The notes under the pieces were generated by a model. That model worked only from the letters and a program-made list of their open reading frames with translations, had not been told where the DNA came from and ran no database searches. Shown here in pieces: positions 2,852 through 25,835 of a stretch of 33,538 nt of DNA (position 1 is its first letter; every line of letters starts with the position of its first letter). The stretch lies in assembly GCA_018263405.1 (NCBI GenBank), contig JAANXG010000038.1, positions 1-33,538 of the forward strand. Reading direction: 5' to 3'. This DNA is from Gammaproteobacteria bacterium. Its GTDB lineage: Bacteria; Pseudomonadota; Gammaproteobacteria; Arenicellales; JAANXG01. A program made the position numbers and the translations under genes.

Positions 2852-3544
2852 TTGAAATATCGTCCCCTGCTTGTCGTGGCGGAGCGCAACAAATCATCCG
2901 CCGCCAAGGGACCGTTGGTTCCCTTCCTATTCTCCGCCATCGCGGCGCTGGCACCATTCTCCTCCCCCGCTGCTTCCCACGGGGCGGGGCTTGACGATAT
3001 TCCAATATGCCACGGCTTTGGATGCCGGAACAAAGAAACCGCGTCGATTTCCGAAGCAGAGTGGAAACAGATCAAAGCGTTCTTCAGCGATCCCGCTGAA
3101 TCCCCGAAAGAGGAGCGTGAACAAATCAGAAAAGCCGCCGGCTGGTTCGAGGTGGTCATCGGCCGTCATACTCCGATTCACCTGGATAAAGGCAAGAACG
3201 AGTACCCCGGCCGTATTAAGACCGCCGGGCCGGCCACGACGGAAGACGGCCCGAACGGAACCACCGTGGGGCAGATGGACTGTATCGACGAGTCGTTGAA
3301 CACAACCACCTATCTGACCCTGATGGAAAAAGCCGGGCTGTTCAGATACCACCGAGTCGTGGAGCGGGCGCATCGGAAGTCGGCGTTCGACCAGCATTAC
3401 GCGGGCCAGATCGAGGAGCTCCGAAGGGGGGCCCGGTGGGTCGTCGACTCGTGGTTCTACGACTATGGCAGCCTACCCTACGTTGAAGAAGCCACGGAGT
3501 GGTATGACATACCCTATTTGTTCAGCACATCGTTTCCGGAATAG
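2852..3544 (+). CDS. Secreted or periplasmic hypothetical protein
   Basis: 230-aa ORF with a TTG start at 2852; an in-frame GTG at 2876 is an alternative. It has a signal-peptide-like N-terminus (GPLVPFLFSAIAALAPFSSPAASHG) and non-shadow amino-acid composition. No family was recognised. Confidence 0.5.
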   Translation: MKYRPLLVVAERNKSSAAKGPLVPFLFSAIAALAPFSSPAASHGAGLDDIPICHGFGCRNKETASISEAEWKQIKAFFSDPAESPKEEREQIRKAAGWFEVVIGRHTPIHLDKGKNEYPGRIKTAGPATTEDGPNGTTVGQMDCIDESLNTTTYLTLMEKAGLFRYHRVVERAHRKSAFDQHYAGQIEELRRGARWVVDSWFYDYGSLPYVEEATEWYDIPYLFSTSFPE

Positions 3545-3710
3545 CGCCCTGCGCTTGGATGGGATCCAGCGGGTTGGGCATCGACCCGCCCGAACGCAAG
3601 CGACGCGATGCACAGGATCGATCGCGCATGCGGTAAAGTGGAGTCCCGATTCGCTACTGACGAGGCGATGCTGTCGAGGATTATCCCCGACACGATGCGG
3701 GAGGGCACTC

Positions 3711-5747
3711 CTACAAATCCTTGCAGATACGAAGGGAATCGTAGATGGCCGAGTGAATGTTCCGGCTGGCCACGGCGTCCCCAACGCGGAATAGATCAAA
3801 ACGGCCGTCCGGATTGGCTTGCGGCTTCTCCAGGCGGCCGTTCAGCAGTGAGGTGGAATCGACCTCCCCCCGGTTGATCGCCATATCCTTCAGTTCGAAA
3901 TACAGGTCATCCACCGGCAGCGTACCGTGCTCCACGATCACTTGATCCACGAGCTGTTCCTGCCGGCTGTCGTCGAATTCGTTGTACAAATGCGCTTTCA
4001 ACCGGCCATCGGAACGTTCCACCCCGACGAGCCGGAGGGTCGGCGACATCGTGACGCCGTTTTCGTGGAAGGTTTTCAGATAAGCGGGAATATTCGTGCC
4101 GCCCACTTCCTGCCCGATCAGGCGATCGGGTGTGGCGATCTCCACGCTGCTGCCCGCGTGAACCAGGTACTCGGCGCAGGACAACCCCTGGTGCTGGCCG
4201 TGGTCGTCAAACACCAGTACCTCCTTCGCCGGGGGCACCTGGCCCCCGAGTATGTCCCAGGTGGTGGTAACGAGCTCATCGCCGCTTTTCAGAAACGCGG
4301 TATTCGGCAGCCCCCCCGTCGCGACAACCACCGCGTCCGGCTCCAGCTGGAGCACGCTTTCGCTATCGGCCAGACAGTTGAACCGCGTCTCGACGCCGGC
4401 CGCTTCGGCCTCGGCGCTCAGCCACTCGGTGATGCCGATGATTTCCCGGCGGCGTTCCACTTTGGCAGCCAGCAGCACCTGACCGCCGGGCTGGGCGGCC
4501 GCTTCGAGCAGCGTGACCCGGTGACCGCGCCGGGCACAGACCCGCGCCGCCTCCAGGCCGGCCGGTCCGGCACCGACGACCACCACCCGCCGCTGCCGGG
4601 AGGCGGGCACGATGTCGTGGGGCATGTGCCGCTCCCTGCCGGTGGCGGGGTTGTGGATGCACAAGGCGTCGCCCGGTTCATACAGGCGGTCAATGCAATA
4701 CCCCATACCGACGCACGGGCGGATCCGGTCTTCTTGTCCCCGCTCGATCTTGCGGGTGATGTGGGGATCCGCCATGTGTGCCCGGGTCATGCCCACCAGG
4801 TCCAGGGCGCCGCCGGCGATCGCGTGCCGGGCCGTGGCCACATCGTTGATGCGCGCGGAATGCAGTACCGGTATCTCGAGCGCCTCCTTGATCGTTCTAC
4901 AGAAGTCGAGGTTGGGGCCGCTGGGCGTGCCCATGTTGGGAATGACTTTCGACAAACCCTTGTCGGTATCGATATGTCCGCGGATCACGTTGATGAAATC
5001 GATGGCCCCGGTATCCACTAGCCGGCGGGCAATCTCCAGGCCCTCGTCGAAGTGGAGGCCGCCGTCCAGCGCTTCGTCTAGCACCATGCGCACCCCAACG
5101 ATATAGCCCCCGCCGACCTGCCGGCGAACCTCGTCCAGGACTTCGAGACTGAAGCGCATGCGCTTGTCCAGACTGCCGCCGTATTCATCCGCCCGCCGGT
5201 TCATGCGCGTGGCCCAGAATGCGTCGAACAAGTGGCCGTAGGCCTGGATTTCGACGCCGTCCAGGCCCCCTTCCCGGCACCGCCGCGCACCTTGACCGTA
5301 ACTGCGCACCGCACGCGCAATATCGAAATCCTCCATGGGTTTGGGAAAGGATCGATGGGCGGGCTCGCGCACGCAGGACGGCCAAAGGGTCGGAAACCAA
5401 TGCCCGGAGTACGAGGATGAGCGGCGCCCCAGATGGGTGATCTGACACATGATGCCCGCGCCGTGGGCGTGGACCCGTTCCGCAAGCCGCCGGAAGTGAG
5501 GGATGATTTCGTCACCGCCCACGTCCAGATTACCGAAAGCCGGGGCGCAATCCCGCGCCACGAGCGCCGAACCGCCGAACATGGTCAGGCCTAACCCGCC
5601 CTTGGCCTTTTCCTCCTGGTAGAGCTGGTAACGTTCGGTGGGGAGTCCGTTCTCGCTGTAGCTCGGTTCGTGGGCCGCACTGAAGATGCGGTTTTTCAGT
5701 TGCAGGTGCTTCAGCGTGAACGCTTGCAGTAAGGGGTCATTCTTCAT
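3711..5747 (-). CDS. FMN/FAD two-domain oxidoreductase of the N-methylproline demethylase (StcD) / DgcA / 2,4-dienoyl-CoA reductase family
   Basis: 678-aa ORF. The N-terminus (MKNDPLLQAFTLKHLQLKNRIFSAAHEPSYSENGLPTERYQLYQEEKAKGGLGL...QITHLGRR) is an OYE-type TIM barrel closely resembling StcD-type N-methylproline demethylases. The central segment RPCVGMGYCIDRLYEPGDALCIHNP has only 3 Cys. The C-terminal part has an NAD/FAD Rossmann motif (VVVVGAGPAGLEAARV). Confidence 0.8.
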   Translation of the reverse strand: MKNDPLLQAFTLKHLQLKNRIFSAAHEPSYSENGLPTERYQLYQEEKAKGGLGLTMFGGSALVARDCAPAFGNLDVGGDEIIPHFRRLAERVHAHGAGIMCQITHLGRRSSSYSGHWFPTLWPSCVREPAHRSFPKPMEDFDIARAVRSYGQGARRCREGGLDGVEIQAYGHLFDAFWATRMNRRADEYGGSLDKRMRFSLEVLDEVRRQVGGGYIVGVRMVLDEALDGGLHFDEGLEIARRLVDTGAIDFINVIRGHIDTDKGLSKVIPNMGTPSGPNLDFCRTIKEALEIPVLHSARINDVATARHAIAGGALDLVGMTRAHMADPHITRKIERGQEDRIRPCVGMGYCIDRLYEPGDALCIHNPATGRERHMPHDIVPASRQRRVVVVGAGPAGLEAARVCARRGHRVTLLEAAAQPGGQVLLAAKVERRREIIGITEWLSAEAEAAGVETRFNCLADSESVLQLEPDAVVVATGGLPNTAFLKSGDELVTTTWDILGGQVPPAKEVLVFDDHGQHQGLSCAEYLVHAGSSVEIATPDRLIGQEVGGTNIPAYLKTFHENGVTMSPTLRLVGVERSDGRLKAHLYNEFDDSRQEQLVDQVIVEHGTLPVDDLYFELKDMAINRGEVDSTSLLNGRLEKPQANPDGRFDLFRVGDAVASRNIHSAIYDSLRICKDL

Positions 5748-5762
5748 TGCATCACCTTGTCG

Positions 5763-5936
5763 GGAATTATGAATTATGGTGACAGTGAATTATGGTGAAT
5801 TATGGTGACAGTTACCTTAATTCACCATTTCTACCGCGCATGCACGACGAACATCGTGTCGCCGGCACATAACCCTCAGCGCTCATTCCTGGAATTAAGG
5901 TAACTGTCACCATAATTCATGGTCACCATAATTCAT
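5763..5936. repeat. Composite inverted/tandem repeat element between the two flavoprotein genes
   Basis: A 28-bp perfect inverted repeat: tgaattatggtgacagttaccttaattc (5796..5823) and its reverse complement (5892..5919), with a 68-nt spacer. The motif gaattatggtga occurs 3 times in direct orientation on the left (5771, 5787, 5797) and 2 times inverted on the right (gtcaccataattc at 5906 and 5922). Confidence 0.8.
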
Positions 5937-5947
5937 GCGCGCCCGGA

Positions 5948-7957
5948 TCACACTGCCATGCCAAGCTTGCGCCCCTCATAGATTGCCATCACGACCAGCC
6001 GCGGCGCGACGCAGTCGCCGATGGCGTGCACCTCCATGCCGCTGTCGGCGAGCTCGTCAGCCAGCCAGGTCTGTGCCTCGCTGATCGTGGCGGTCACCAG
6101 GGTGTCGGCCTCGATGCGCGTCTTGCCGCCGTCGAGCAGATTCACCACGTCGGCGGCATCGCCGTGCCACTCGGTAATCGCACTATCTCCGACCTCGACC
6201 ACGCCCAAGCGCTTCAGGCGCGCGCGCAACGGCACGTCCGCCGCCGTGCGCGCCAGCTCGACCCCAACAACCGGGTGGCGCGTAACGATGGTGACCTGGT
6301 GCCCCGCCTCTGCAAGATGCCACGCGGTCCCCGCGCCGTGCCAATGGCCAAGATCGTCCAGCAGGATAACACGCCGGCCGGGCCGGGCTACGCGGCCCAT
6401 GACGTCATCGATCGTGCAGACCCGGCCCCGGTCGATGCCGGGCAGCCGCTCGACCTGGGGCAAGGCCCGCTGAAAGCCGCTCTCAGCGGGCAGCGAACCG
6501 GTCGCCACGACCACGGTATCGGCCCCGTAGGCTGGGACATCCCGGGCTTCCACGGGCGTGTTGTACCGCACCTCGACCCCGCAACGTTCGAGCTCGCGCG
6601 TCCACCACTCGATGAGCTCGGCGATCTGGCCCCGCCGGGGCTGCAGCCCGGCATAGAAAAACCGCCCCCCCAGCCGGGGGCTCGCCTCGGCAAGAGTAAC
6701 CGCGTGGCCCCGCCCGGTGGCCACACGCGCCGCCTCGAGTCCGGCCGGTCCACCACCGACGACCAGAATCTTGCACGGTGTTTTGGTCCTGGCCGGGGCG
6801 TCACCGCCCCATTCGAACTCGCGCCCGGTCGACGGGTTCACCAAGCAGGAGATCCAGTAGTCGCGGTAACGCCGGCCCCAGCACATCTGGTTGCACGACA
6901 GGCAAGGCCGGATCTCCGCCTCGCGCCCTTCCCGGGCCTTGTTGCCCAGGTACGGGTCGGCAATCTGGCCGCGCACGATCGATACCAGGTCGGCCTGGCC
7001 GGCGCCAAGAACGGTGTTGGCGTTCTCGGCGGTACGCACGTGGCTCTCGCACTGTACCTTCGCGTGCCGCGTCACCTGCTTGAGCGCTTCGGCGAACGGC
7101 GCTCCGAGCTTGTCCGCGTAGAGGACCGTGGGCATCAGCGGGTAGAAGTCGAAATAACTGCCCGTGCCGCAGGTGACATAGTCCATCAGCGCGCGCTCGT
7201 CGTGCCAGGCAACGAGCTCCTGCATGGCCTCGATCGACAGCGATACCTCGACTCCCGGGTGCATATTGACCGCGAGGCCGATGATGAAGTCGTCGCCGCA
7301 GCGGCGGCGGATCCGGTCGAGCAGGGTCGCGGAAAATCGCATGCGGTTGTCGAACGACCCGCCCCATCGGTCATCTCGACGATTCGACCAGGGTGTCCAG
7401 AACTGATCGATCAGCGCATGATAGGCTGCGAACAGCTCCACACCCTCGAAGCCGGACTCCTTCGCCCGCCACGCCGCATCCTCGAAGCATTGCAGCGTCT
7501 CCTCGATCTCGGCTTCCGTCATGGCATGACTGCCGTCGGAATCGTGGTACGAGGGCAGGCCCGAGGGCGACCAGTTCGCGTGGAACGAATTGTCATAATC
7601 GCCATGCTCGCCGACGTGATAAAGCTGCTGCAGCACGACCACGTCGTATTGCTTAACGGCCTCGGCGATGCGCCGAAAATACGGAATGACCGCGTCGTCA
7701 CAAGGCCGGTAATTGCGCGCCGTCAGCACCGCGGCCGGATGCACCGGCATCGGCTCGGTGACGATCATGGCGGCGCCCCCGCGGGCCCGTTCCTCGTAGT
7801 AGCCGCGGTGACGCTCGCTCGGCAGACCGTTATCCGCCATGTTCGCCGTATGCGCCCCGAACACGAGGCGGTTCTTGAGGCGCTTGTGCCGCAACTCGAG
7901 CGGCTGGAACAGGTGGCAGAACGGTTGCTCACCCATGGTCAAGTAGTACTCCTTCAA
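5948..7957 (-). CDS. FMN / 4Fe-4S / FAD oxidoreductase (DgcA / trimethylamine-dehydrogenase / 2,4-dienoyl-CoA reductase family), paralogue of 3711..5747
   Basis: 669-aa ORF with an OYE-like N-terminal domain (LKNRLVFGAHTANMADNGLPSERHRGYYEERARGGAAMIV). It has the canonical Fe-S motif C-x2-C-x3-C-x11-C (RPCLSCNQMCWGRRYRDYWISCLVNP), then ILVVGGGPAGLEAARV. The start is ambiguous: TTG at 7957, or ATG at 7936, which lies 12 nt downstream of an AAGGAG. Confidence 0.8.
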   Translation of the reverse strand: MKEYYLTMGEQPFCHLFQPLELRHKRLKNRLVFGAHTANMADNGLPSERHRGYYEERARGGAAMIVTEPMPVHPAAVLTARNYRPCDDAVIPYFRRIAEAVKQYDVVVLQQLYHVGEHGDYDNSFHANWSPSGLPSYHDSDGSHAMTEAEIEETLQCFEDAAWRAKESGFEGVELFAAYHALIDQFWTPWSNRRDDRWGGSFDNRMRFSATLLDRIRRRCGDDFIIGLAVNMHPGVEVSLSIEAMQELVAWHDERALMDYVTCGTGSYFDFYPLMPTVLYADKLGAPFAEALKQVTRHAKVQCESHVRTAENANTVLGAGQADLVSIVRGQIADPYLGNKAREGREAEIRPCLSCNQMCWGRRYRDYWISCLVNPSTGREFEWGGDAPARTKTPCKILVVGGGPAGLEAARVATGRGHAVTLAEASPRLGGRFFYAGLQPRRGQIAELIEWWTRELERCGVEVRYNTPVEARDVPAYGADTVVVATGSLPAESGFQRALPQVERLPGIDRGRVCTIDDVMGRVARPGRRVILLDDLGHWHGAGTAWHLAEAGHQVTIVTRHPVVGVELARTAADVPLRARLKRLGVVEVGDSAITEWHGDAADVVNLLDGGKTRIEADTLVTATISEAQTWLADELADSGMEVHAIGDCVAPRLVVMAIYEGRKLGMAV

Positions 7958-7975
7958 GCTGATATTGACGAGGTA

Positions 7976-9538
7976 CTAGTACCATGCATCCGCCATCGAT
8001 GCCTTCCGCCGAGCGACGAAATCTCGCAATGCCTCATCGAGGGCGGGATCCAGTACCGGTTCCTGCTCCGGGAACTGCGCCAGCATCGCCTTCCAGCGTG
8101 CGTTGGCGCGGGCAACGATGTCCTTCGATCCTTCCTCGGTCCACTGCTCGTAGGACTGATTGTCGGCCAAGTCCGAAGGATAGAAAGCCGTCCGGTAGTT
8201 GGCTAGGGTGTGTGAACAGGCGAGGAAGTGATTCCCCGGCCCCACCTCGCGGAAAGCATCGAGCGCGAGCGCGTTGTCGTCGGTGGCGAAGCCTTCGGCA
8301 AACGTATGCATGGCACCGCAGCGGTCGGCATCGATAACGAACTTCTCGTAACCGACAGCGAGAGCGCTCTCGAGCCAACCGGCGGCGTGAAGCACGTAGT
8401 GGGCACCCGCGAGCAGCGTCGGCATCAACGTATCCGCGCTCTCCTGAGCCGCCTGGGCATCCGGGATTTTCGATGCTGTGAGTGAACCACCAAGGCGCAG
8501 CGGCACACCGAGGCGGCGCGCGAGTTGGCCCACCACGAAATAGGCCAGGGCGGGCTCGGGAGTACCAAATGTCGGTGCCCCGGAGCGCAATGACATCGAC
8601 GACAAGAAAACCCCGAGGACGGCGGGCGCACCGGGGCGAACGAGCTGGGTCAGCGCGACTCCGGCCATAGCCTCGGCAAACGCCTGGGCGACAGCGCCCG
8701 CCCCGGTCACCGGCCCCATCGCCCCGCCAAGGATGAAAGGCAGGATGATAGTGCCCTGGTTGGCAGTCGCGTAGGTGCGCAACGCACTGGTTGCCATTCG
8801 GTCGAACACCAGCGGCGAGTTCGCGTTTACGTTACCGAGGATTACGCAGTGCCGGTCCACGAATTGTTCGCCGAAAACCAGTCGGGCCATCTCGATCGAG
8901 TCGGCGGCCCGCTCCGGCGCCGTAATGGAGCCGAGGAATGGCTTATCGGAGTACTTCAGGTGGGCGTAGACCATGTCCAAGTGGCGATTGTTTACCGGCA
9001 GATCGACCGGCTCACAGACCGTGCCTCCCGAGTGATGGAGCCATGGCGACATCCAGGCGAGCTTGACCAGGTTGCGGAAGTCCTCAATGGAGGCATATCT
9101 ACGTCCGCGGTCGGCGTCGGTCACGAATGGAGATCCGTACGCCGGGGCGAAGATCGTGGCATCACCGCCAAATTGGACCGAGCGCTCGGGGTTGCGCGCG
9201 TGCTGGATGAAGGTCCGCGGCGCAGTCTCCTGAATAATACGACGCAGCATGCCCTGCGGAAATCGCACGCGCTCGCCGTCGACATCGGCGCCTGCTTGGC
9301 GCCAAATTGCCAACGTCTCCGGGTCGTCCCGGAAGTCGATGCCGGGGTCCTGAAGAATCGAATCGATCGTGTTCTCGATCCGGCGCAACGCCTCTTCCCC
9401 CAAGAGTTCATAAGGACGCAAGTGGCGTGTCAGGTTGGCGGGTCCTCGTGTCGGACTCGCCGAAGACGGCGTTCGGCGCTTGGCCCCCGCACCGCCTTGT
9501 CGGCGTTTGCGCCGGCGAGTGGCATTCGCTTCGATCAA
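7976..9538 (-). CDS. Trimethylamine-methyltransferase (MttB) superfamily protein, non-pyrrolysine type (MtgB/MtpB-like quaternary-amine methyltransferase candidate)
   Basis: 520-aa uninterrupted ORF with no in-frame TAG. The TTG start lies 8 nt after a GGAG. Family-typical segments include FIQHARNPERSVQFGGD, HHSGGTVCEPVDLP, NANSPLVFD, GAPTFGTPEPAL, LHAAGWLES and EKFVIDADRCG. It is clearly paralogous to 13046..14602 and has an Arg-rich N-terminus (ATRRRKRRQGGAGAKRR). Confidence 0.85.
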   Translation of the reverse strand: MIEANATRRRKRRQGGAGAKRRTPSSASPTRGPANLTRHLRPYELLGEEALRRIENTIDSILQDPGIDFRDDPETLAIWRQAGADVDGERVRFPQGMLRRIIQETAPRTFIQHARNPERSVQFGGDATIFAPAYGSPFVTDADRGRRYASIEDFRNLVKLAWMSPWLHHSGGTVCEPVDLPVNNRHLDMVYAHLKYSDKPFLGSITAPERAADSIEMARLVFGEQFVDRHCVILGNVNANSPLVFDRMATSALRTYATANQGTIILPFILGGAMGPVTGAGAVAQAFAEAMAGVALTQLVRPGAPAVLGVFLSSMSLRSGAPTFGTPEPALAYFVVGQLARRLGVPLRLGGSLTASKIPDAQAAQESADTLMPTLLAGAHYVLHAAGWLESALAVGYEKFVIDADRCGAMHTFAEGFATDDNALALDAFREVGPGNHFLACSHTLANYRTAFYPSDLADNQSYEQWTEEGSKDIVARANARWKAMLAQFPEQEPVLDPALDEALRDFVARRKASMADAWY

Positions 9539-9582
9539 AATAACGTCTCCGTCTGCCTGAGCTGTGTGGACGTGAGCTCGGT

Positions 9583-9610
9583 TGTTTAACCGGGTAACGA
9601 CTTATGTCAA
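9583..9610 (-). promoter_or_regulatory. Candidate internal sigma70-type promoter upstream of the MttB-family gene
   Basis: In minus sense: TTGACA (9610..9605), a 16-nt spacer, then TAAACA (9588..9583), about 45 nt upstream of the TTG start. The -35 box is perfect but the -10 box matches only 3 of 6 positions. Motif evidence only. Confidence 0.25.
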
Positions 9611-9705
9611 ATACTCTGCGCCGTTGATTCGCTCGGCGTCAAACAACATTTTTCGGGGGGAATTCGATAATTGTGGTTGATGCGTGGGTGTCGATAACCG
9701 TGAGA

Positions 9706-10755
9706 TCAGTTGGCGCGGGCGCGGCCTCGCCGGCGCGAGCGGCGCACCGCACTCCGTACCGGAGCCGGAGCGCCGGCGATCTGGGTGCGCATTCCCTCGG
9801 TCACCGTACCCAGTCGCTGGATCACGGCATCGACATCGGGGAGTGGTTCCGGCTCCGCTTGTGCCAGGGCCTCGCGCATCGCCCGGACATGTCTCGCCGT
9901 GGTGCCGCAGCACCCGCCGATAATGGTAGCTCCCGCTGCGTAGGCCAACCGGGCGTAATCGGCCATCAACTCGGGCGTACCGTTGTAAACGATTTTTCCA
10001 TCGATGTACTCCGGTATCCCGCAATTAGCCTTCGCCACCAGTGCCGGTTTTTCGGCGTTGTCTTCCCGTTCCCGGTTCATCCGCAGTATCGCCATGACCA
10101 CCTCGGCGGCACCGATGCCGCAATTCGTACCGAAGGCCACCGGCGCCGGATTCAGCGCGTTTTGCAGGGCGACGATATCCTGCGCCGATACACCCATCAT
10201 GGTACGGCCGTTGGTGTCGATGCTGAAACAGGTCACAATCGGCAGACCGGTGTCCGCGGCGCCCCGCACCGCCGCTGCCACCTCCTCCCTGGAGGACATG
10301 GTCTCGATCCACAACACGTCGACACCGCCTTCCCGCAGGCCCCTGGCCTGCTCCGAGAACGCGGCGACTGCGTCGTCGAAACACAAGCTGCCCACGGGCT
10401 GGAGAATTTCCCCGGTTGGGCCCATGGAGCCGGCCGCCACGACCGTCCGCTCCGACGCGTCGATGGCACCTCTCAGGATCCACGCCGCCTGCCGATTGAT
10501 TTCGTAGACGCGGTCCTGGGCCTGGTGCAGGGCCAGGCGATGGCGAGTGCCGCCGAAAGAGTTGGTGAGCACGATGTCGGAACCGGCGTCGATGAAGCTG
10601 CGGTAATGGACCTCCACGCGTTCCGGATAGTCGATGTTCCACAACTCCGGCGCACCGCCGCTTGGCAGGCCCAGATCGAACAAACCGGTGCCGGTCGCGC
10701 CGTCCGCCAGCAGCCAGGGCCTGATATCCAGCAGTTTCCGCAGCAGATCAGTCAT
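9706..10755 (-). CDS. Homocysteine S-methyltransferase-domain protein (stand-alone MetH N-terminal / BHMT / MmuM-type domain)
   Basis: 349-aa ORF with the N-terminal LLADGATGTGLF motif (DGxxGT). Zn-ligand cysteines sit in KANCGIP and IIGGCCGTTARHV, matching the GGCCGT signature of Pfam S-methyl_trans. There is no B12-binding domain. The C-terminal tail is Arg-rich (RSAVRRSRRRGRARAN). Confidence 0.8.
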   Translation of the reverse strand: MTDLLRKLLDIRPWLLADGATGTGLFDLGLPSGGAPELWNIDYPERVEVHYRSFIDAGSDIVLTNSFGGTRHRLALHQAQDRVYEINRQAAWILRGAIDASERTVVAAGSMGPTGEILQPVGSLCFDDAVAAFSEQARGLREGGVDVLWIETMSSREEVAAAVRGAADTGLPIVTCFSIDTNGRTMMGVSAQDIVALQNALNPAPVAFGTNCGIGAAEVVMAILRMNREREDNAEKPALVAKANCGIPEYIDGKIVYNGTPELMADYARLAYAAGATIIGGCCGTTARHVRAMREALAQAEPEPLPDVDAVIQRLGTVTEGMRTQIAGAPAPVRSAVRRSRRRGRARAN

Positions 10756-10943
10756 TGTCTGTTTATCATACCGGATCGACCCGTTTTGAATCCGTTCTGC
10801 AATCGCTCCGTAGCGGATTCAATCTCCAGGGATGGAGGAAGTGCAATAAATGGCCGGGAGCGAGTTGCTGCCGGCCGCGATATCGTCCTGGTCGGAGAAT
10901 CGCAGCCAATAAAGCCGCTCCTGCTACACTCGGAACACCAAAT

Positions 10944-11879
10944 CTACGCTTTCAGAGCCTCGGTCAACGCCGGGACCGCTGTAAACAGATCTTCCACCAG
11001 ACCGTAATCGGCCACCTGGAAGATGGGTGCTTCCTCGTCATTGTTGATGGCCGCGATTACCTTGCTGTCCTTCATGCCGGCAAGGTGCTGAATAGCGCCG
11101 GAAATGCCGATCGCCAGATAAAGATCCGGAGCCACAACTTTGCCGGTCTGGCCAACCTGATAATCGTTCGGCACGTAGCCAGCATCCACGGCGGCGCGAG
11201 ACGCGCCGACCGCGGCATTGAGACTCGCCGCGAGATCCTCGATCATCCGGAAATTTTCCGCGCTGCCAACGCCCCGACCACCGGACACGACGGTGCGCGC
11301 TGAGGTCAGCTCGGGCCGGTTCGACTGGGACAGATTCTGTTCCACGAAGCGCGATCCTTCGCCCGACACCGCCGCTTCCACGTTTTCCACCTCCGCGTTG
11401 CCGCCCTCGATGCCTGCGGCGTCGAATTTAGTGGTCCGCACGGTGACGACCTTAATCGGATCGGCGGACTGCACCTTCGCCAACGCGTTGCCCGCGTAAA
11501 TCGGGCGCTCGAAGGTATCTTCCGAGAACACTGCACTGATGTCCGAGATCTGCGCGACATCCAGCAGGGCGCTGACGCGGGGCATCACGTTTTTGCCGTA
11601 CGTAGTGGCGGCGGCAACGACATGACTGTATCCCTCGGCGAGCCCGACAATCAACGGCGCGATGTTCTCGGGCATATGGTGTTCATACTCGGGGGCATCC
11701 GCCAGCAGGACGCGTTCGACACCGCCTACCCTCGCACAAGTATCGGCAACACCCGCGCAACCGGAGCCGGCTACCAGCATTTCGACCGGCCCGCCCATCC
11801 GTGAAGCGGCGGTCACCGCGTGGAGGGCTACCTCGAGTAATTCGGAATTGTTGTGTTCGGAAACTACCAGGACCGCCAT
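10944..11879 (-). CDS. etfA: Electron transfer flavoprotein, alpha subunit
   Basis: 311-aa ORF with a classical EtfA sequence (MAVLVVSEH..., VVSGGRGVGS, AVGASRAAVDAGYVPNDYQVGQTGKVVAPDLYLAIGISGAIQHLAGMKDSKVIAAINNDEEAPIF). Its ATG overlaps the etfB stop by 1 nt (TGATG). Confidence 0.92.
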   Translation of the reverse strand: MAVLVVSEHNNSELLEVALHAVTAASRMGGPVEMLVAGSGCAGVADTCARVGGVERVLLADAPEYEHHMPENIAPLIVGLAEGYSHVVAAATTYGKNVMPRVSALLDVAQISDISAVFSEDTFERPIYAGNALAKVQSADPIKVVTVRTTKFDAAGIEGGNAEVENVEAAVSGEGSRFVEQNLSQSNRPELTSARTVVSGGRGVGSAENFRMIEDLAASLNAAVGASRAAVDAGYVPNDYQVGQTGKVVAPDLYLAIGISGAIQHLAGMKDSKVIAAINNDEEAPIFQVADYGLVEDLFTAVPALTEALKA

Positions 11880-12628
11880 CAGATTACCTTTGCCTCGTTT
11901 TTCAATTTTTCGACCAGCTCTGCGACACTGCCGACCCGTACGCCTTCGGCACGGGGCGGCGGTTCGCTGACATTTAATATTTTCATCCTCGGTTCCAGGT
12001 CAAGGCCCAGATCGCCCGCGGCTTTTTTTTCCACCGGCTTTTTCTTCGCCTTCATAATATTGGGCAGTGAAGCATGCCGCGGCTCATTCAAACGAAGATC
12101 AACGGAAACGATGGCGGGCAGATCCAGCTCGACGGTCTCCAGGCCACCGTCGATCTCGCGAACCACCTTGGTCGTTTCGCCTTCCAGTTCAACGCCGGAC
12201 GCAAACGTGCCCTGGGGCCAGTTCAGCAAAGCTGCCAGGCTCTGGCCGGCCTGGTTGCAGTCGTCGTCGATGGCCTGCTTGCCCAACAACACGAGCTGCG
12301 CAGATTCTTCCTCAACGATTTGCTTCAGGATCTTCGCGACCGCCAAGGGTTCGAGGTTTCGTTCACCTTCCACCAGAACGCCCCGGTCGGCACCCATGGC
12401 CAAGGCGGTGCGAATGGTTTCTTCGGACTTCGCCGGGCCGATCGACACAGCGATAATTTCTTCGGCGGCACCCGCTTCCTTCAGGCGCACGGCCTGTTCC
12501 ACGGCGACCTCGTCGAAAGGATTCATGGACATCTTGGCGTTGGAAAGATCCACACCGGAGCCATCGGGTTTCACGTAAGCGCGGACATAGGGATCCAGCA
12601 CTCGTTTCACACCTACGAGGATTTTCAT
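11879..12628 (-). CDS. etfB: Electron transfer flavoprotein, beta subunit
   Basis: The ORF track starts at GTG 12634. The ATG at 12628 gives the canonical EtfB N-terminus ([28 protein letters not shown]...). The rest ([32 protein letters not shown]) is typical EtfB. Confidence 0.9.
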
Positions 12629-12652
12629 GCTCACTCTGCTTTCCGGTTATAG

Positions 12653-12713
12653 TTAGTACCCCTTGGCACAATTACGCACGCGTTCAGTGCGTAATTGTGC
12701 CAAGGGGTACTTA
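12653..12713. repeat. Perfect palindromic REP/MITE-like element (family copy 1) in the etfB 5' region
   Basis: The arms gtaccccttggcacaattacgcac (12656..12679) and gtgcgtaattgtgccaaggggtac (12687..12710) form a 24-25 bp perfect stem with a 7-nt loop, flanked by TTA on each side. The termini are repeated at 33170..33240: a 20-nt identical left end (ttagtaccccttggcacaat) and the right end ccaaggggt.cttaggg. Confidence 0.8.
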
Positions 12714-12738
12714 GGGTGCATGTTGTCACAGCCTGTGG

Positions 12739-12747
12739 ATTCTACCA
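12739..12747 (-). promoter_or_regulatory. Candidate extended -10 promoter element for the etfBA-led operon
   Basis: The minus sense reads TGgTAGAAT (TGn plus a 5/6 match to TATAAT), about 110 nt upstream of the etfB ATG. No good -35 box. A transcript from here would carry the 12656..12710 hairpin in its 5' UTR. Motif evidence only. Confidence 0.25.
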
Positions 12748-13045
12748 GATCGTCTCATAATGAGGACCGCCACCGACAAGGCCGACCGGATCGGACCGGT
12801 CGACCCATAATCGGCCAAGCATCGATAAAAGCGCGGCAGTGTAGCTTCGGTCAAAAACCCGCTACAACGCGTTTGCGACTGCGTATGATGAAATTGCGTC
12901 ACGGGTATGGCGCAGGTAAGAACATGGCGGTCGCGAGTCGCGCTGAAAGTCCAAAGGGAATCTTCAATGATTCGCACCGTAAAGCGCGGGACCGATATGA
13001 GTCTGACCGGCCCCGTCATCTACAGCCGAAAGCCGGAACCCCGAT

Positions 13046-14602
13046 ATGACCGACACTACAACAAGACGACGAGGCGGCGGCCGCGAGGCTCGTCAACGCC
13101 TGCGCAGCGAGATTGCACCCGCCCGTACCGCCTACATTAAGAGGCGTATCCCCGTCTATCAGATACTGGACGACGATGGCTTGTCGGTTATCGAAGCCAA
13201 CGCCGATACGATCCTTCAAGAGATCGGCATTGAGTTTCGAGACGACGCCGAAGCTTTAGCATTATGGAAGGAGCACGGTGCGGATGTACAAGGTGAACGG
13301 GTGCGTTTCCCCAAAGGAATGTGCCGCTCGATTATCCAGGCATCGGCGCCTGTAGAATTTACCCAGCACGCGAGAAACCCTGCCAACAGCGTCCGGATCG
13401 GGGGCGACAACCTTGTGCTCGTCCCCGGCTACGGTCCGCCGTTTATTCGCAATCTGGACGAAGGCCGCCGCTACGCGAGGCTCGAGGATTTCCAGAATTT
13501 CGTCAAGCTTGCTTATATGGCACCGGCGCTTCACCATTCCGGCGGCACCCTGTGTGAGCCCGTGGATATACCCATACCGAAACGGCATCTGGACATGCTC
13601 CATAGCCATATGCGCTACAGCGACAAATGCTTCATGGGCTCGGTCACGGCCCCGGAGCGCGCGGAGGACACGATGGCAATGGCCAGGATCCTCTTCGGCG
13701 ATAGCTTCGCGGACCCCGAAACCGGCGAAGAACGCACTTGCGTAGTCAGCCTAATCAACGCCAATTCGCCCTTGACCTTCGATGCGACCATGCTGGGGGC
13801 CGCCAAGGTTTATGCGCGCGCCAATCAGGGCACCGTCATCTCGCCGTTTATTCTGTCCGGCGCCATGTCGCCCGTGACCGTCGCCGGGACGGCGGCCCAG
13901 ATCCTGTCCGAAGCCATGGCCGGCATGGCATTTGTACAACTGGTGCGACCCGGCGCTCCGGTCGTGTTCGGGACATTCTCCAGCTCCATTTCCATGCAAT
14001 CCGGCGCCCCCACGTTCGGAACCCCGGAGCCGGCGCTGGTGATCAACGTGGCCGCGGCGCTTGCCCGGCGTCTGGGGGTACCTTTCCGCAGCGGCGGCGG
14101 CTTGTCGGCCTCCAAGATTGCGGACGCGCAGGCCGGCTACGAATCGGCCAACACGCTCAACGCCGCGGTCAATGCCGGCGTGAATTTCATGCTGCACACC
14201 ACCGGCTGGCTGGAAGGAGGCCTGGCGATGGGCTACGAAAAATTCGTGCTGGATGCCGACCAGGCCGGGATGATCCAAGCGCTGTGCAACGGCGTGGACT
14301 TGTCCGACAACGGTCAGGCACTGGACGCAATCCGCGAAGTCGGTCCGGGGCAGCATTTTCTGGGCTGCGCCCACACCCAAGCGAACTTCCAGTCCGCGTT
14401 CTATCGCTCCAGTACCGCCGACAACAACAGCTTCGAACAGTGGGAATCCACAGGCGGTCTCGATGCCGCTCGACGGGCCAACAAGTTGTACAAGAAATGG
14501 CTCGCCGAATACCAGGAACCGAAGCTGGACGCCGCCGTTGACGAAGCACTGCAGGCATACATCTCGAAAAGAAAGTCGCAATTGCCGGACCGCGGCGAAT
14601 AA
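13046..14602 (+). CDS. Trimethylamine-methyltransferase (MttB) superfamily protein, non-pyrrolysine type, second paralogue
   Basis: 518-aa uninterrupted ORF with an ATG start. Collinear similarity to 7976..9538 includes FTQHARNPANSVRIGGD, HHSGGTLCEPVDIP, NANSPLTFD, GAPTFGTPEPAL, LHTTGWLEG and EKFVLDADQAG. The N-terminus is Arg/Gly-rich (TTRRRGGGREARQRLR). Confidence 0.85.
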   Translation: MTDTTTRRRGGGREARQRLRSEIAPARTAYIKRRIPVYQILDDDGLSVIEANADTILQEIGIEFRDDAEALALWKEHGADVQGERVRFPKGMCRSIIQASAPVEFTQHARNPANSVRIGGDNLVLVPGYGPPFIRNLDEGRRYARLEDFQNFVKLAYMAPALHHSGGTLCEPVDIPIPKRHLDMLHSHMRYSDKCFMGSVTAPERAEDTMAMARILFGDSFADPETGEERTCVVSLINANSPLTFDATMLGAAKVYARANQGTVISPFILSGAMSPVTVAGTAAQILSEAMAGMAFVQLVRPGAPVVFGTFSSSISMQSGAPTFGTPEPALVINVAAALARRLGVPFRSGGGLSASKIADAQAGYESANTLNAAVNAGVNFMLHTTGWLEGGLAMGYEKFVLDADQAGMIQALCNGVDLSDNGQALDAIREVGPGQHFLGCAHTQANFQSAFYRSSTADNNSFEQWESTGGLDAARRANKLYKKWLAEYQEPKLDAAVDEALQAYISKRKSQLPDRGE

Positions 14603-14635
14603 GCCGGGCCCAAGATTCGAATTGGCGGCACGGCA

Positions 14636-14669
14636 ACGGCCCGGAATCGAAGCATCCGGGCCGTTTTCT
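14636..14669 (+). terminator. Rho-independent terminator candidate after the second MttB-family gene
   Basis: The stem acggcccgg (14636..14644) pairs with ccgggccgt (14656..14664) across an 11-nt loop, followed by TTTTCT. It starts 34 nt after the stop codon. Confidence 0.55.
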
Positions 14670-14784
14670 AATTGCGTCACCGGATATTTCCTCCTATATT
14701 GCAGACGATTTGCGTTTTCGCTCGTTTCGGCGGGAATCGGTCGCGCACCGTTTGTGCGCTGCAAAGTGAGGCACGCTACCAATT

Positions 14785-15762
14785 ATGTCCGGTTCCTCAG
14801 AAAATTCGTTACCCAAGGTATTCAATTTCCTTTTGGTTCCGAATTTCACCTTGTTGGCCTACTCCTCCGCGGTAGAACCACTTCGGATGGCGAATACGCT
14901 ATCGGGCCGGGAACTCTACAACTGGAACATTATTTCCCTCGACAGCGATCCGACGCCATCCAGTAGTGGCGTCAGCCTGCCCGGAAATTTCACGATTTAT
15001 GATCGAATTCCGCCGGGGGCCCTACTGATCTGCGCCGGAATTGACGTCCTGCACGCCAATACGCCGGCATTGCAGGCGTGGTTAAAAAAAGCAGCAAAAC
15101 AATACAGCCCTATCGGCGCCCTATGCACCGGCACCTTCATCCTGGCCGAAGCACAACTTCTGGCGGGCTACCGTTGTACGATCCACTGGGAGTATAACGC
15201 CACACTGCGGGAAACCCATCCCAACCTGGTTGTATCGCAGGAGTTGTTCGAAGTCGACCGCGACCGGTATACCTGCGCGGGCGGTGTCGCGTCGTTGGAT
15301 ATGATGTTGCACCTCATTCGGCAACAACAGGGCGCAGAGTTGTCGGCGGCTATATCCGAACAGTTGATCTGCGACCGTATACGGGACAAAAACGACCGCC
15401 AGCGCATCCCCCTTCGTCATCGTCTTGGTACCGGCCAACCCAAACTACTGGAGGCGGTCTCGTTGATGGAAGCCAACATAGAGGAGCCCATGGCCCTGGA
15501 CGAACTGTCGCGGCACATCGGCTTGTCGCGCCGGCAGTTGGAGCGCCTGTTCAAGTCTTATCTGAGCTGTGTACCGACGCGCTACTATCTTCAGCTACGC
15601 TTGGAACGGGCCCGGCAACTGCTGCTGCAAACCAGCATGCCGGTGGTGGACATCGCCCTGGCCTGCGGCTTTATCTCCGCCCCTCACTTCAGCAAATGCT
15701 ACAGATTGATTTTCGGCATACCTCCACGCGAAGACCGCAGACGGGCGACTTCGCCGAATTAG
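14785..15762 (+). CDS. GlxA-family (DJ-1/PfpI-like domain + AraC HTH) transcriptional regulator, GbdR/CdhR-like
   Basis: 325-aa ORF. The N-terminal amidotransferase-like domain (FNFLLVPNFTLLAYSSAVEPLRMANTLSGRELYNWNIISLD...ALCTGTFILAEAQLL) resembles the betaine/carnitine-responsive regulators GbdR and CdhR. The C-terminal AraC HTH is present (LDELSRHIGLSRRQLERLFK...IALACGFISAPHFSKCYRLIFGIPP). Confidence 0.85.
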   Translation: MSGSSENSLPKVFNFLLVPNFTLLAYSSAVEPLRMANTLSGRELYNWNIISLDSDPTPSSSGVSLPGNFTIYDRIPPGALLICAGIDVLHANTPALQAWLKKAAKQYSPIGALCTGTFILAEAQLLAGYRCTIHWEYNATLRETHPNLVVSQELFEVDRDRYTCAGGVASLDMMLHLIRQQQGAELSAAISEQLICDRIRDKNDRQRIPLRHRLGTGQPKLLEAVSLMEANIEEPMALDELSRHIGLSRRQLERLFKSYLSCVPTRYYLQLRLERARQLLLQTSMPVVDIALACGFISAPHFSKCYRLIFGIPPREDRRRATSPN

Positions 15763-15964
15763 TTGACGTTCAAAAAAACCCGGGCGACCGGCCACCATCA
15801 AGCGCCCTCCCGTCGCCGAATGTATGGCCGTGGGGTTGCATACATTCTTGCCGGCAATATCCTGCGCGGCACCGCCGGCCGGATCGAACAATCCGGTACG
15901 GTCGACGAGATATGAAACTTATTCCACAGAGGGGATTGAACTTGGACTTGCTCGGGACCACGTC

Positions 15965-17131
15965 ATGAATTTGCGCACGATCCGGTTGATCGCCGCCCTG
16001 TTGTTGGTTGGGTTGCCACTGGTAACGGGGTGGGCAGTGGGCTTCCCCGAGGGGTTTTTCGAGCTTCCGCCCAAAACAGTTTACATTGACCCGCCAAAGT
16101 TCTCGGTACCGTTGTATTCGTTCTTCACGGTACTTCTGTTTGTCGCTCTTTTCTTCTTGTGGGCGCCGCGGGTCTTTGGTTTCAACGGGCAAAGCCGGTC
16201 CGACTTCACTCCGTTTGACTGGACGGCCCCGCCGACTCACGGACATCGTTTTCCTGCCTGGGGTTGGGTTGGGATTGCCTTAATCGCCGCGAGCTGGCCG
16301 GCGGCTTGGACGCGTCCGGACTGGCTCGGCTCCGCCATCGATCATACCTTCTTTCCGCTTTGGCTCGGCTACATCCTAACCGTGGACGCTCTCACCTATC
16401 GCCGCGCCGGCACGAGTCCGATGTCCCGACACACCGTCGAGTGGCTGGCCTGGTTTCCAGCATCGGCTTTGACCTGGTGGTATTTCGAATTACTCAACCG
16501 GTTTATACAGAACTGGGTGTATCTCGGCATCGACCACTTCTCTTCGCTTCGCTACGTGTTGGGATCCACTCTCGCATTCGCTACGGTCATCCCGGCGGTT
16601 CTCACCACAGCGGCACTGCTTGGCACCTTCGATTATTTCCATGACCGTTTCGTTCGGACCGAACCGGGATACGCCGAATCGGTCCCGCGCCGTGGCGTAT
16701 GGTGGGGGTTGGTGGCGGCGGGGTCACTGGGCTTGACGGTAATGCCCTGGTTTCCGATCACGTTATTCGCCTTAATCTGGGTTGCCCCCCTGCTCATCCT
16801 CGCCGGCCTTCTGGAACAGGCGGGGATAAACACCGGAGTAGGCCACCTGCTGCGCGGGGATTGGGGGCCGATCGTTACACTGGCCGTGGCCGCTCTGATA
16901 TGCGGCTTTTTCTGGGAATTGTGGAACATCTACGCGCTACCGAAGTGGACCTACCAAGTACCCTGGGTAGACCGGTTCAAGTTGTTCGAAATGCCGCTCG
17001 CGGGTTACCTCGGCTACCTGCCGTTCGGCCCGGCATGCTGGATGTTCTGGCTGCTGCTGGCACCCCGCGCCGTGCAGGCAACGCCGAGACCTCAAGATAC
17101 AACAGTTTATCGGGGACTTCAAAGACGATAA
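15965..17131 (+). CDS. Polytopic inner-membrane protein of unknown function
   Basis: The ORF track begins at 15824. The ATG at 15965 (MNLRTIRLIAALLLVGLPLV) begins the first hydrophobic span. About 9-10 hydrophobic segments rich in Trp/Phe follow (WWYFELLNRFIQNWVYLG, FFWELWNIYALPKWTY). No family was recognised. The 3' end overlaps the convergent gene by 13 nt. Confidence 0.6.
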   Translation: MNLRTIRLIAALLLVGLPLVTGWAVGFPEGFFELPPKTVYIDPPKFSVPLYSFFTVLLFVALFFLWAPRVFGFNGQSRSDFTPFDWTAPPTHGHRFPAWGWVGIALIAASWPAAWTRPDWLGSAIDHTFFPLWLGYILTVDALTYRRAGTSPMSRHTVEWLAWFPASALTWWYFELLNRFIQNWVYLGIDHFSSLRYVLGSTLAFATVIPAVLTTAALLGTFDYFHDRFVRTEPGYAESVPRRGVWWGLVAAGSLGLTVMPWFPITLFALIWVAPLLILAGLLEQAGINTGVGHLLRGDWGPIVTLAVAALICGFFWELWNIYALPKWTYQVPWVDRFKLFEMPLAGYLGYLPFGPACWMFWLLLAPRAVQATPRPQDTTVYRGLQRR

Positions 17132-23840: not shown

Positions 23841-24110
23841 CTAGTGTACCCCGTCACTGATATTGCAACATTCAGAGCGTGCCGGAGCCGCCAGTGGAAG
23901 GCGCGATCCGCAGTGAATGGCCCAGTCCTTTACCAGGAGTGCAACGCCCCAATGGTGGCTCAGGCGCGCTCCCTTCGGGCGGCCCGGAAAGCGATCATCC
24001 GCGGCGTTATGTCTGTTGAGAAGGGCGCACCATTCCCGGCGAGACAGGCCTTGCGGCTCACCGCTTTCCGGGCCGCTGAACGTTACAATATCAGTGACGG
24101 GGTGCACTAG
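23841..24110. mobile_element. 270-bp non-autonomous MITE-like element with ~31-bp terminal inverted repeats and a CTAG target-site duplication
   Basis: The left end is ctag|tgtaccccgtcactgatattgcaacattcag (23841..23875). The right end is ctgaacgttacaatatcagtgacggggtgca|ctag (24076..24110). The arms match at 28 of 31 positions and both ends carry CTAG. There is no internal transposase-size ORF; the two ORF-track entries ending in NISDGVH are the mirrored TIRs. Confidence 0.7.
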
Positions 24111-24180
24111 CTTGAAATACGCTCGAACACAACACGCCGGCCAGGTTAACAGCGTTATTGAAGGTCGAATTTTGGATGCG
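24108..24180 (+). repeat. Direct repeat, left copy, bracketing the AT-rich insert
   Basis: tagcttgaaatacgctcgaacacaacacgccggccaggttaacagcgttattgaaggtcgaattttggatgcg is repeated at 25710..25781 with about 4 mismatches and 1 indel. The last 36 nt are identical. Confidence 0.85.
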
Positions 24181-24583
24181 TAGCGGGCGACGAATTATTC
24201 CGGGCACCCCGCCCTCCACTCCTACGGGACCGGCCTTTGGCCGTTTAAATACGTTCCCGCCGCATTTGTTCAGCGGCTCCAGGATGACATGGGTCGTGCC
24301 GTTGCGATACGGTGTTTCCCCCGGAAGGGCCTTTTCACTACAAGACATAGGGTTTATCCTCTCTCTCTTATCCGTGATAACAACTTTTATCGGTATCACC
24401 CTGGTATCGGTATCACCTCCGACACCTTTGTCTCTGCCAATATCGAGCGGGGACCGGGAACGATTGAGTCTTTAAGCGATCTGACCGTACTACAAACGCT
24501 GATTGCTTTGGCACTGCTTGGAGTTTTCACGTTAATGCCGACAATCTACAGACAAATCAAAACTCGTAAAAAGGAAAATCAAC

Positions 24584-25175: not shown

Positions 25176-25180
25176 GTCGC

Positions 25181-25648: not shown

Positions 25649-25709
25649 GGGCTCGCGTAAAAAGTCGGTTCACGTGGGATTGTGCCACAAATAGAACCCC
25701 CTATCTCCT

Positions 25710-25781: not shown

Positions 25782-25835
25782 CGGCTGGCGAAATCGTTTT
25801 TTTGCTGGTGCCCGCGCACTTCTTAGTCGCCTAAG

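Follow-up and report, generated by a model that had tools for sequence, protein, structure and literature searches.

A gammaproteobacterial locus predicted to combine MttB-family methyltransferases of a cobalamin-dependent quaternary-amine demethylation system with flavoprotein/ETF N-demethylases

That aerobic bacteria demethylate glycine betaine with the help of cobalamin has been known only since 2025. In Ruegeria pomeroyi the pfam06253 protein MtgB, the shared corrinoid protein MtgC and the bidirectional pterin-binding protein MtgD demethylate glycine betaine (Mausz et al. 2025, PMC12478193), and the same MtgC and MtgD combine with MtgE, a pfam02574 protein, into a split methionine synthase (PMC12478193). 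RamA and DUF1638 act as reactivation partners (PMC12478193; Price et al. 2018, PMC5764234), and MetF2, a MetF paralogue encoded next to mtgD, is strongly induced (PMC12478193). The mtg genes are often dispersed, as they are in R. pomeroyi, and one genome can have as many as seven pfam06253 paralogues; the authors of the 2025 study noted that many such paralogues are uncharacterised (PMC12478193). Proline betaine is handled in Paracoccus denitrificans by the HpbR-HpbB1C1-HpbA pathway (PMC3950512). Here we analysed the contig JAANXG010000038.1 of an Arenicellales-like gammaproteobacterium; the entire contig, 33,538 nt, is the window referred to below. We put at about 0.72 the probability that the greater part of an aerobic MtgBCDE-type system for cobalamin-dependent demethylation of quaternary amines is encoded in the window and linked to N-demethylases that consist of flavoproteins and an electron transfer flavoprotein (ETF), as two modules sharing one methyl carrier. 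This reading builds on the domain content, clade structure, neighbourhood statistics and synteny observed here, from which we infer activities and substrates.

Gene calls were taken from a listing of open reading frames (ORFs) and family assignments from Pfam and NCBIfam profile scans, with Pfam run on the 20 gene-sized ORFs. A preliminary description of this DNA had listed most of the genes below, and all of those were found in place:

3711-5747, minus strand: OYE_A flavoprotein (Oxidored_FMN and Pyr_redox_2), with Met in place of the second Cys
5948-7957, minus strand: OYE_B flavoprotein (Oxidored_FMN and Pyr_redox_2), with a 4Fe-4S motif CxxCxxxC..C
7976-9538, minus strand: MttB1, clade B, 520 aa (PF06253, 725 bits, residues 14-515)
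9706-10755, minus strand: MtgE-like Hcy (homocysteine) S-methyltransferase, 349 aa (PF02574, E 8e-61)
10944-11879, minus strand: EtfA, ETF alpha subunit (PF01012 and PF00766)
11879-12634, minus strand: EtfB, ETF beta subunit (PF01012), first gene of the minus-strand operon
13046-14602, plus strand: MttB2, clade A, 518 aa (PF06253, 747 bits, residues 9-514), divergent from the operon
14785-15762, plus strand: GbdR-like AraC-family regulator (HTH_18 and DJ-1_PfpI)
29833-30666, plus strand: MetF2-type protein of a divergent methylenetetrahydrofolate reductase (MTHFR) family (PF02219, 32.5 bits, gathering score 24)
31140-33158, minus strand: RamA/RACo activase (Fer2, RACo_linker, Raco_middle and RACo_C_ter)
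33159-33538: non-coding contig end with dispersed repeats, at the assembly break

The window resembles the MtgBCDE system of R. pomeroyi and Phaeobacter inhibens in having pfam06253 enzymes, a pfam02574 MtgE, a MetF2-type MTHFR and a RamA-like activase, and its syntenic relatives carry MtgC (pfam02607 and pfam02310), MtgD (pfam00809) and DUF1638. Several MttB paralogues to one carrier, and genes that are not all contiguous, are further points of likeness. The window differs in its gammaproteobacterial host, in a second MttB clade coupled to OYE flavoproteins, and in the position of mtgE, which is anabolic in the model organisms but here accompanies etfBA and the N-demethylase genes in a catabolic operon. 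The syntenic relatives also differ from that system in a PF13769 gene that is a constant member of the operon. In the route that we propose, an MttB-family enzyme would move one betaine methyl onto the Co(I) corrinoid that a shared MtgC carries. MtgD would then hand the methyl to tetrahydrofolate (THF) and the MetF2-type reductase would oxidise methyl-THF; alternatively, the 349-aa MtgE would hand the methyl to homocysteine to yield methionine. RamA/RACo would re-reduce inactive Co(II), and both flavoproteins, which are of the OYE/TMADH class, would oxidatively demethylate the remaining tertiary or secondary amine and deliver the electrons to EtfAB. A hybrid route of this type, leading from MttB through a carrier to homocysteine or THF and including the MTHFR, the flavoproteins and ETF, had been put forward in the preliminary description; it is borne out by the comparative evidence given below and matches the MtgBCDE model (PMC12478193). 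The general mechanism is already known, having been published in 2025 (Mausz et al.). What is new is the coupling of an uncharacterised clade of MttB proteins to HpbA-like demethylases, in this case with mtgE and ETF genes in one operon; in the literature searched we found nothing linking MttB with hpbA, stcD or dgcA, nor MttB with ETF, homocysteine and betaine. The preliminary description had recognised neither the different functional clades of the two MttB paralogues nor the orthology of the flavoproteins and ETF to a stachydrine cluster, to which they are closer than to DgcAB.

The corrinoid carrier itself is absent from the window, as had been reported before: the cobalamin-binding motif DxHxxG..SxL..GG had 0 matches in all six frames, and tblastn of MtgC, MtgD, DUF1638, MetF and MetV from related loci against the window returned nothing at E<=1e-3. 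Because the window is the whole contig, the lack of a carrier in view means that none is on this assembly fragment. The contig stops 380 nt upstream of the ramA start, inside a dispersed repeat. The sole gene-like ORF in 33159-33538 is a 64-codon frame (33343-33537, minus strand) that runs off the contig end and has no recognisable similarity, and the repeats there match four segments of related loci (L089:13818-13881, L086:20811-20860, L089:9748-9810 and L088:2369-2434). An independent 7.5-kb Logan contig, retrieved by exact-protein look-up with RACo, breaks at the same place. The related loci L089 and L090 are collinear with the window and lie on long contigs, and their RACo is 84-86% identical to that of the window. 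Both carry, immediately 5' of RACo and in the same orientation, genes for a protein with B12-binding_2 and B12-binding domains (mtgC, 239-240 aa), for DUF1638, for PF13769 and for a Pterin_bind protein (mtgD, 305-306 aa). The IOR, MTHFR-like, APH, ACAD, SDR and Amdase genes of the relatives are 71-83% identical to those of the window and in the same order; both L089 and L090 keep the order MTHFR-like/IOR/DUF6285, and only L090 goes on to APH/ACAD/SDR/Amdase. The locus L086, which holds an etfBA/hcyMT/OYE_A/MttB2/GbdR block (hcyMT being the homocysteine methyltransferase gene), shares one 388-kb contig with the Mtg core of L089, in the order and at the approximate spacing seen in the window. 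We attribute the absence of mtgC, DUF1638, PF13769 and mtgD to the contig end, since the relatives have these genes exactly where the contig stops. On the evidence of these relatives, the genome would have mtgC and mtgD as well, and both would probably be met ~0.4-3 kb beyond position 33538. Of the two explanations offered earlier, a carrier encoded outside the window gains from the exact synteny of L089 and L090, and a different methyl acceptor found no support. The corrinoid protein and pterin-binding genes were seen directly upstream of ramA in two relatives and not in this genome; with them the puzzle of the carrier largely dissolves, and we consider it mostly an artefact of assembly, a contig break at a repeat rather than a matter of biology.

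The activase next to the break had been described as a 2Fe-2S/ASKHA activator, in agreement with the presence of all four RACo Pfam domains; the NCBIfam models AcsV and RamA both scored under their cutoffs. Judged from the relatives, ramA is predicted to be the last visible gene of an mtgC-DUF1638-PF13769-mtgD-ramA operon. The MTHFR-like protein scored far under the cutoffs of the NCBIfam MetF models. Its family is conserved at 65-81% and carries the NCBI name methylenetetrahydrofolate reductase. In Salaquimonas pukyongi a 67%-identical homologue lies between PF13769 and mtgD, in an operon mtgC-DUF1638-PF13769-[MTHFR-like]-mtgD-ramA that adjoins MtgE and MttB genes, and we take the window gene as MetF2-type because of this operon context. 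Immediately upstream of it are genes for DUF6285 and a 1156-1199-aa indolepyruvate/POR-family oxidoreductase (POR and DUF6537), together at 25836-29641 on the plus strand. This same-strand DUF6285/POR-MetF2 arrangement is kept in all close relatives, and the MetF2 gene may be co-transcribed with the DUF6285/POR genes rather than with the Mtg core. As a separate observation, the mtgC-DUF1638-...-mtgD-ramA operon of Gamma- and Alphaproteobacteria consistently includes the PF13769 ("Virulence_fact") gene, of ~105 aa (L089:8256-8573, L090:8177-8494, L094:7621-7923, L058:19169-19507), which receives no mention in the MtgBCDE paper (PMC12478193).

Both MttB proteins match PF06253 over their full length and are 56% identical to each other. 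Neither uses pyrrolysine, because both ORFs are uninterrupted, and the NCBIfam model of pyrrolysine-type MttB scored 245 bits against a cutoff of 525, so that the earlier identification of two non-pyrrolysine MttB-superfamily ORFs of ~520 aa stands. The bit score of MttB2 was 748 with S. meliloti 4YYC and 435 with MtgB of Desulfitobacterium hafniense (DhMtgB, 2QNE). Like the anaerobe enzymes MtpB, MtgB, MtcB, MtyB and MthB (Eubacterium limosum, D. hafniense), the two are non-pyrrolysine MttB-superfamily TIM-barrel enzymes that would require a corrinoid protein and a RamA-type activase. They differ from these in being 39-46% identical to DhMtgB, and in an aerobic host, where the downstream steps would be oxidative (flavoprotein/ETF) and not acetogenic or methanogenic. 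Glycine betaine is bound in DhMtgB by Y97, R312, H348 and F356 (PMC13080624). Y97, R312 and H348 are conserved in MttB1, MttB2 and S. meliloti 4YYC. F356 is replaced by Gly in MttB2, with Trp at position 352, and position 356 is non-aromatic (Ala or Gly) in MttB1 and 4YYC. This comparison of binding residues assigns no substrate, because its outcome is essentially the same in both paralogues.

A scan of genome-collection contigs with MttB1 yielded at least 80 related loci; the best MttB1 match among the matches listed was 69% identical. BLAST, clustering, Pfam checks and neighbour-joining trees divided the proteins into two clades. Clade A comprises MttB2, S. meliloti 4YYC, the Salaquimonas copy and an Azoarcus copy whose neighbours are betAB and a choline ABC transporter. 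Clade-A loci carry RACo, MtgC, MtgD, DUF1638, MetF/MetV, FolD, SoxAB, DMGDH and GbdR-like regulators. This context is predicted to be that of glycine betaine, with MttB2 as an MtgB-type glycine betaine:corrinoid methyltransferase. The regulator gene beside MttB2 had been called GbdR-type. GbdR is indeed its best NCBIfam match, and its architecture, DJ-1/PfpI plus AraC HTH, is that of GbdR; the score of 431.8 bits, however, falls under the 480-bit equivalog cutoff. GbdR-like genes occur in 13 of 80 related loci among the matches listed, mostly adjoining clade-A MttB, and the regulator of L086 is 84% identical and syntenic. MttB2 and the GbdR-like regulator would thus form the glycine-betaine module. 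A 689-aa gene of the hydantoinase/oxoprolinase family (Hydantoinase_A) also recurs beside FolD-MttB of clade A (L043, L060, L070, L077, L083).

Clade B, which includes MttB1, has a different neighbourhood. Among the matches listed, an OYE flavoprotein gene lies directly downstream on the same strand in 29 of the 48 clade-B loci with enough sequence, compared to 0 of 18 clade-A loci. This MttB-to-OYE adjacency spans Alpha-, Beta- and Gammaproteobacteria. A divergent LysR regulator gene is common, and the remaining neighbourhood is variable. Clade B appears to use a corrinoid carrier too, because its genes are within ~3.5 kb of mtgC in L004, L065 and L037. In Rhodobacter sp. CZR27 the clade-B MttB gene follows a LysR gene, is divergent from a Rieske hpbBC-like pair and is a few kb from proVWX and hpbA, i.e. 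inside an hpb cluster. From these neighbourhoods MttB1 is predicted to be a corrinoid-dependent demethylase of a proline-betaine-type betaine. One clade-B subclade (L011, L015, L026, L078) pairs with a DMGDH-like (FAD and GcvT) demethylase and not with OYE, which suggests that the second-step enzyme is interchangeable.

The flavoproteins and ETF bear on the same substrate class. Along its whole length (100%), OYE_A shares 50-53% identity with R. etli stcD and with the Paracoccus and Rhodobacter proteins annotated by PGAP as HpbA (N-methyl-L-proline N-demethylase), compared to 43% for DgcA of the Ralstonia pepD-hp-dgcA-dgcB-fixAB-gbcAB cluster (cluster as defined in PMC12093977). Identity at the 50-53% level falls short of proving a common substrate. 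Its Fe/S motif, C-VG-M-G-YC..C, has three Cys; Cx5C..C was present in 32/32 OYE_A orthologues examined, and four Cys in 5/5 OYE_B orthologues. A three-Cys motif defines "cluster 2" of the OYE 2-enoate-reductases (2-ER), one member of which demethylates N-methylproline in vitro (PMC11759058), and the OYE_A motif matches it. OYE_A is predicted to be a demethylase of N-methyl amino acids, of the N-methylproline type, that donates electrons to ETF. OYE_B, whose true start is probably the Met at ~7936, has the canonical four-Cys 4Fe-4S motif CLSCNQMC..C, and its PDB matches are NCR, DCR, TMADH and histamine dehydrogenase. It is a predicted amine dehydrogenase, an FMN/FAD flavoprotein of the 2-enoate-reductase/TMADH class; for its structural relative TMADH, complexes with ETF have been solved (1O94/1O95). 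Rhizobium anhuiense and Shinella zoogloeoides have orthologues of OYE_B (59-61%), OYE_A (52%), EtfB (64-66%) and EtfA (60%) in one cluster, together with a ProVWX-type betaine transporter and genes for glutathione-dependent formaldehyde detoxification; the Shinella locus additionally has a Rieske demethylase pair. This is a stachydrine-type cluster; with orthologues there of its ETF and of both its flavoproteins, the operon of the window looks like a proline-betaine-type pathway.

The genes etfBA-mtgE-mttB1-OYE_B-OYE_A would accordingly be read as a proline-betaine-type (stachydrine/hpb-like) module, in which the B12-dependent MttB1 would substitute for the O2-dependent Rieske first step and OYE_A, as an HpbA/StcD-like N-methylproline demethylase, would carry out the second demethylation with ETF as acceptor. 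Compared to the hpb and stc (Stc2-4/StcD of rhizobia) systems, the likeness consists in the orthology of OYE_A, OYE_B and ETF, in the position of the CZR27 gene inside an hpb cluster, and in the LysR regulator that usually diverges from the clade-B module, like hpbR. The difference is that the first demethylation would be the work of a predicted B12-dependent MttB and not of a Rieske oxygenase; Rieske, ProVWX, HpbD and PutA genes are absent from the window. Clade-B MttB is most economically read as a B12-dependent option for the first step otherwise taken by a Rieske enzyme. Tentatively, and at somewhat less than even odds, we extend this to clade B as a whole: its MttB would open the catabolism of proline-betaine-type compounds with an aerobic, cobalamin-dependent step, within a widespread, undescribed LysR-MttB-HpbA module of Alpha-, Beta- and Gammaproteobacteria that parallels or replaces the Rieske enzyme as MtgBCD parallels GbcAB. 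With mtgE and ETF co-transcribed, as here, the first methyl would end up in methionine by way of the common corrinoid protein, and later methyls would supply the respiratory chain. The locus and its relatives give one pfam06253 clade a concrete candidate role, with a proline-betaine-type substrate and an HpbA-like partner, and the LysR-MttB-HpbA module has cultured carriers: Shinella sp. PSBB067, Thalassobaculum fulvum KCTC 42651, Rhodoferax lacus IMCC26218 and Rhodobacter sp. CZR27, the last with both a Rieske and a predicted MttB route. If true, marine and soil bacteria would need B12 for a second abundant class of osmolytes as well, and the oxygenase and B12 routes would be interchangeable first steps.

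The 349-aa protein is where a different account of the locus is easiest to build. We predict it to be MtgE, yet it passes the NCBIfam equivalog NF005718, "betaine--homocysteine S-methyltransferase" (BHMT), with 452.6 bits against a cutoff of 338, and it could be a true corrinoid-independent enzyme of that kind, with OYE_A and ETF then demethylating dimethylglycine and the MttB proteins serving other substrates. S. meliloti Bmt has been cited in such a role, a 2025 preprint lets MtgE act either way, and the operon of L086 consists of etfBA-hcyMT-OYE_A alone. The best PDB match of the 349-aa protein, however, is the homocysteine module of T. maritima MetH (138 bits), compared to 50 bits for mammalian BHMT. 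The alignment with the MetH module shows a GGCCGT motif, which we take to be the zinc site. The S. meliloti "Bhmt" family has been re-read as MtgE; proteins of this type are without the glycine-betaine-binding residues of BHMT, and a bhmt mutant given methionine still catabolises glycine betaine (PMC12478193). Since OYE_A is also nearer to HpbA/StcD than to DgcA, and the complete Mtg core is linked in relatives, we regard direct betaine-homocysteine transfer, which the preliminary description had offered as the simpler alternative, as quite unlikely. A route for glycine betaine only, of the DgcAB type, would keep both MttB proteins in the pathway: MttB1 or MttB2 would convert glycine betaine to dimethylglycine, OYE_B dimethylglycine to sarcosine and OYE_A sarcosine to glycine. 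Three enzymes would serve three methyl groups, the GbdR-like regulator gene adjoins, one clade-B subclade is paired with DMGDH-like genes, and the carboxylate-binding residues are kept in both paralogues. The window also shares with DgcAB-FixAB under GbdR (Pseudomonas aeruginosa, Vibrio natriegens; PMC12093977) the pair of an OYE-type flavoprotein and ETF, which dgcAB-fixAB of Pseudomonas, Vibrio and Ralstonia likewise couples, and, by prediction, N-demethylation of a betaine breakdown product. Unlike in that system, no DgcB gene was detected: Pfam gave no (Fe-S)-binding/DUF3483 family for any of the 20 gene-sized ORFs of the window, those of the operon included. The lower identity of OYE_A to DgcA than to HpbA/stcD also sets the window apart. 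The ETF, with 60-66% identity to that of the stc cluster, had no match to dgc-linked FixAB over more than half its length at E<=1e-10. Given also that OYE_A is never directly downstream in the clade-A loci listed and that the CZR27 clade-B gene is inside an hpb cluster, this route is in our estimate unlikely.

Two further readings would sever the MttB genes from the rest of the pathway. RamA, MetF2 and the off-contig mtgCD might constitute an anabolic split methionine synthase only, the MttB proteins being unrelated and using another methyl acceptor, and the ~16 kb between the RamA region and the MttB genes in the window could be taken in this sense. But mtgC and mtgD mutants of R. pomeroyi neither grow on nor consume glycine betaine, even with methionine, every characterised MttB-superfamily enzyme methylates a corrinoid, and both MttB clades adjoin mtgC or ramA in many genomes, which leaves this idea with hardly any credibility. 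Alternatively, OYE_A and OYE_B could be enoate or dienoyl-CoA-type reductases of an unrelated pathway beside which MttB1 happens to lie. In the PDB they match 2,4-dienoyl-CoA reductase and 2-naphthoyl-CoA reductase best, OYEBi keeps enoate reductase activity, and ACAD and SDR genes are present in the window. A chance neighbourhood is difficult to reconcile with the recurrence of the clade-B MttB-OYE pair in three proteobacterial classes, with orthologues in clusters for betaine transport, Rieske demethylation and formaldehyde detoxification, and with the PGAP name HpbA of the 50-53% homologues, and we consider it very improbable.

Several observations nonetheless weigh against the two-module system with a shared carrier that we prefer. 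The genes mtgC and mtgD are absent from the window itself and are known from relatives 84-86% identical. F356 is kept in neither paralogue, and the four glycine-betaine-binding positions do not separate MttB1 from MttB2. OYE_A and OYE_B match amine dehydrogenases in the PDB no better than they match enoate or dienoyl-CoA reductases, and three stand-alone OYE_A homologues (62-65% identical) on megabase contigs have no MttB gene nearby and offer no clue to the substrate. OYE_A and ETF need no MttB1 in cis, because L086 has etfBA-mtgE-OYE_A without MttB1 or OYE_B; OYE_A could act on dimethylglycine, the product of MttB2, instead. Proline betaine requires two demethylations only, which leaves the role of OYE_B unexplained. 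Finally, mtgE is repressed on glycine betaine in model organisms, and its presence in a catabolic operon is for that reason not foreseen by the published model.

The build of the operon can be traced in the close relatives, with MttB2 and EtfB 88% identical in L086 and MttB1 and OYE_B 84% and 83% identical, respectively, in L088. In L086 the gene order is etfB-etfA-hcyMT-OYE_A, 13 nt separate hcyMT from OYE_A, and MttB1 and OYE_B are missing; L088 has MttB1-OYE_B-OYE_A and is without ETF or hcyMT. The operon of the window is the union of the two arrangements, with MttB1-OYE_B placed between hcyMT and OYE_A and flanked by spacers of 167 nt and 200 nt. Between OYE_B and OYE_A, a 30-nt inverted repeat (5769-5798 / 5907-5936, 93% complementary) made of GAATTATGGTGA units takes up the 200-nt gap, which is the right-hand junction of the MttB1 plus OYE_B insertion relative to L086. 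The L088 trio (L088:2530-6184) comes directly after a CoxSML-type molybdenum hydroxylase (Fer2_2, FAD_binding_5, MoCoBD) and is followed by a P450 and a TonB receptor, a neighbourhood that might point to an unusual substrate, for instance an N-heterocyclic one.

Upstream of the operon lies one further element:

12655-12711: near-perfect palindrome of a dispersed repeat family, with arms of ~25 bp each, lying 20 nt before the etfB start

Its arms are AGTACCCCTTGGCACAATTACGCAC / GTGCGTAATTGTGCCAAGGGGTACT. A degenerate copy is found at 33170-33242, just upstream of the ramA start, and a further copy upstream of ramA in L089 (L089:9748-9795). The palindrome may represent either a dispersed repeat of the REP-like kind or a leader or operator element that these genes share. 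A sigma-54 promoter reading of the element upstream of etfB and ramA was rejected, as the spacing and the -12 element do not fit, in favour of a dispersed REP-like repeat. Rfam at gathering threshold gave no hit at all, and with that no cobalamin, SAM or THF riboswitch, in the window, and in a promoter/terminator scan of 3400-15900 terminator counts were at shuffle level.

Elsewhere in the window, three sizeable ORFs had no Pfam match: 22543-23793 (minus strand, 416 aa), 2852-3544 (plus strand, 230 aa) and 15824-17131 (plus strand, 435 aa). The 416- and 230-aa ORFs were also without an NCBIfam match, and the 435-aa ORF is hydrophobic and membrane-like; the 230-aa ORF is kept (66%) beside a TPR-sulfotransferase in L086. 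The stretch 24000-26000 has a GC content of 0.51, compared to ~0.60, and is flanked by ~83-nt direct repeats (24108-24190, 25710-25791). It contains a frameshifted short-chain dehydrogenase gene (24584-25190) and an unassigned 171-aa ORF (25133-25648), and looks like a decayed insertion.

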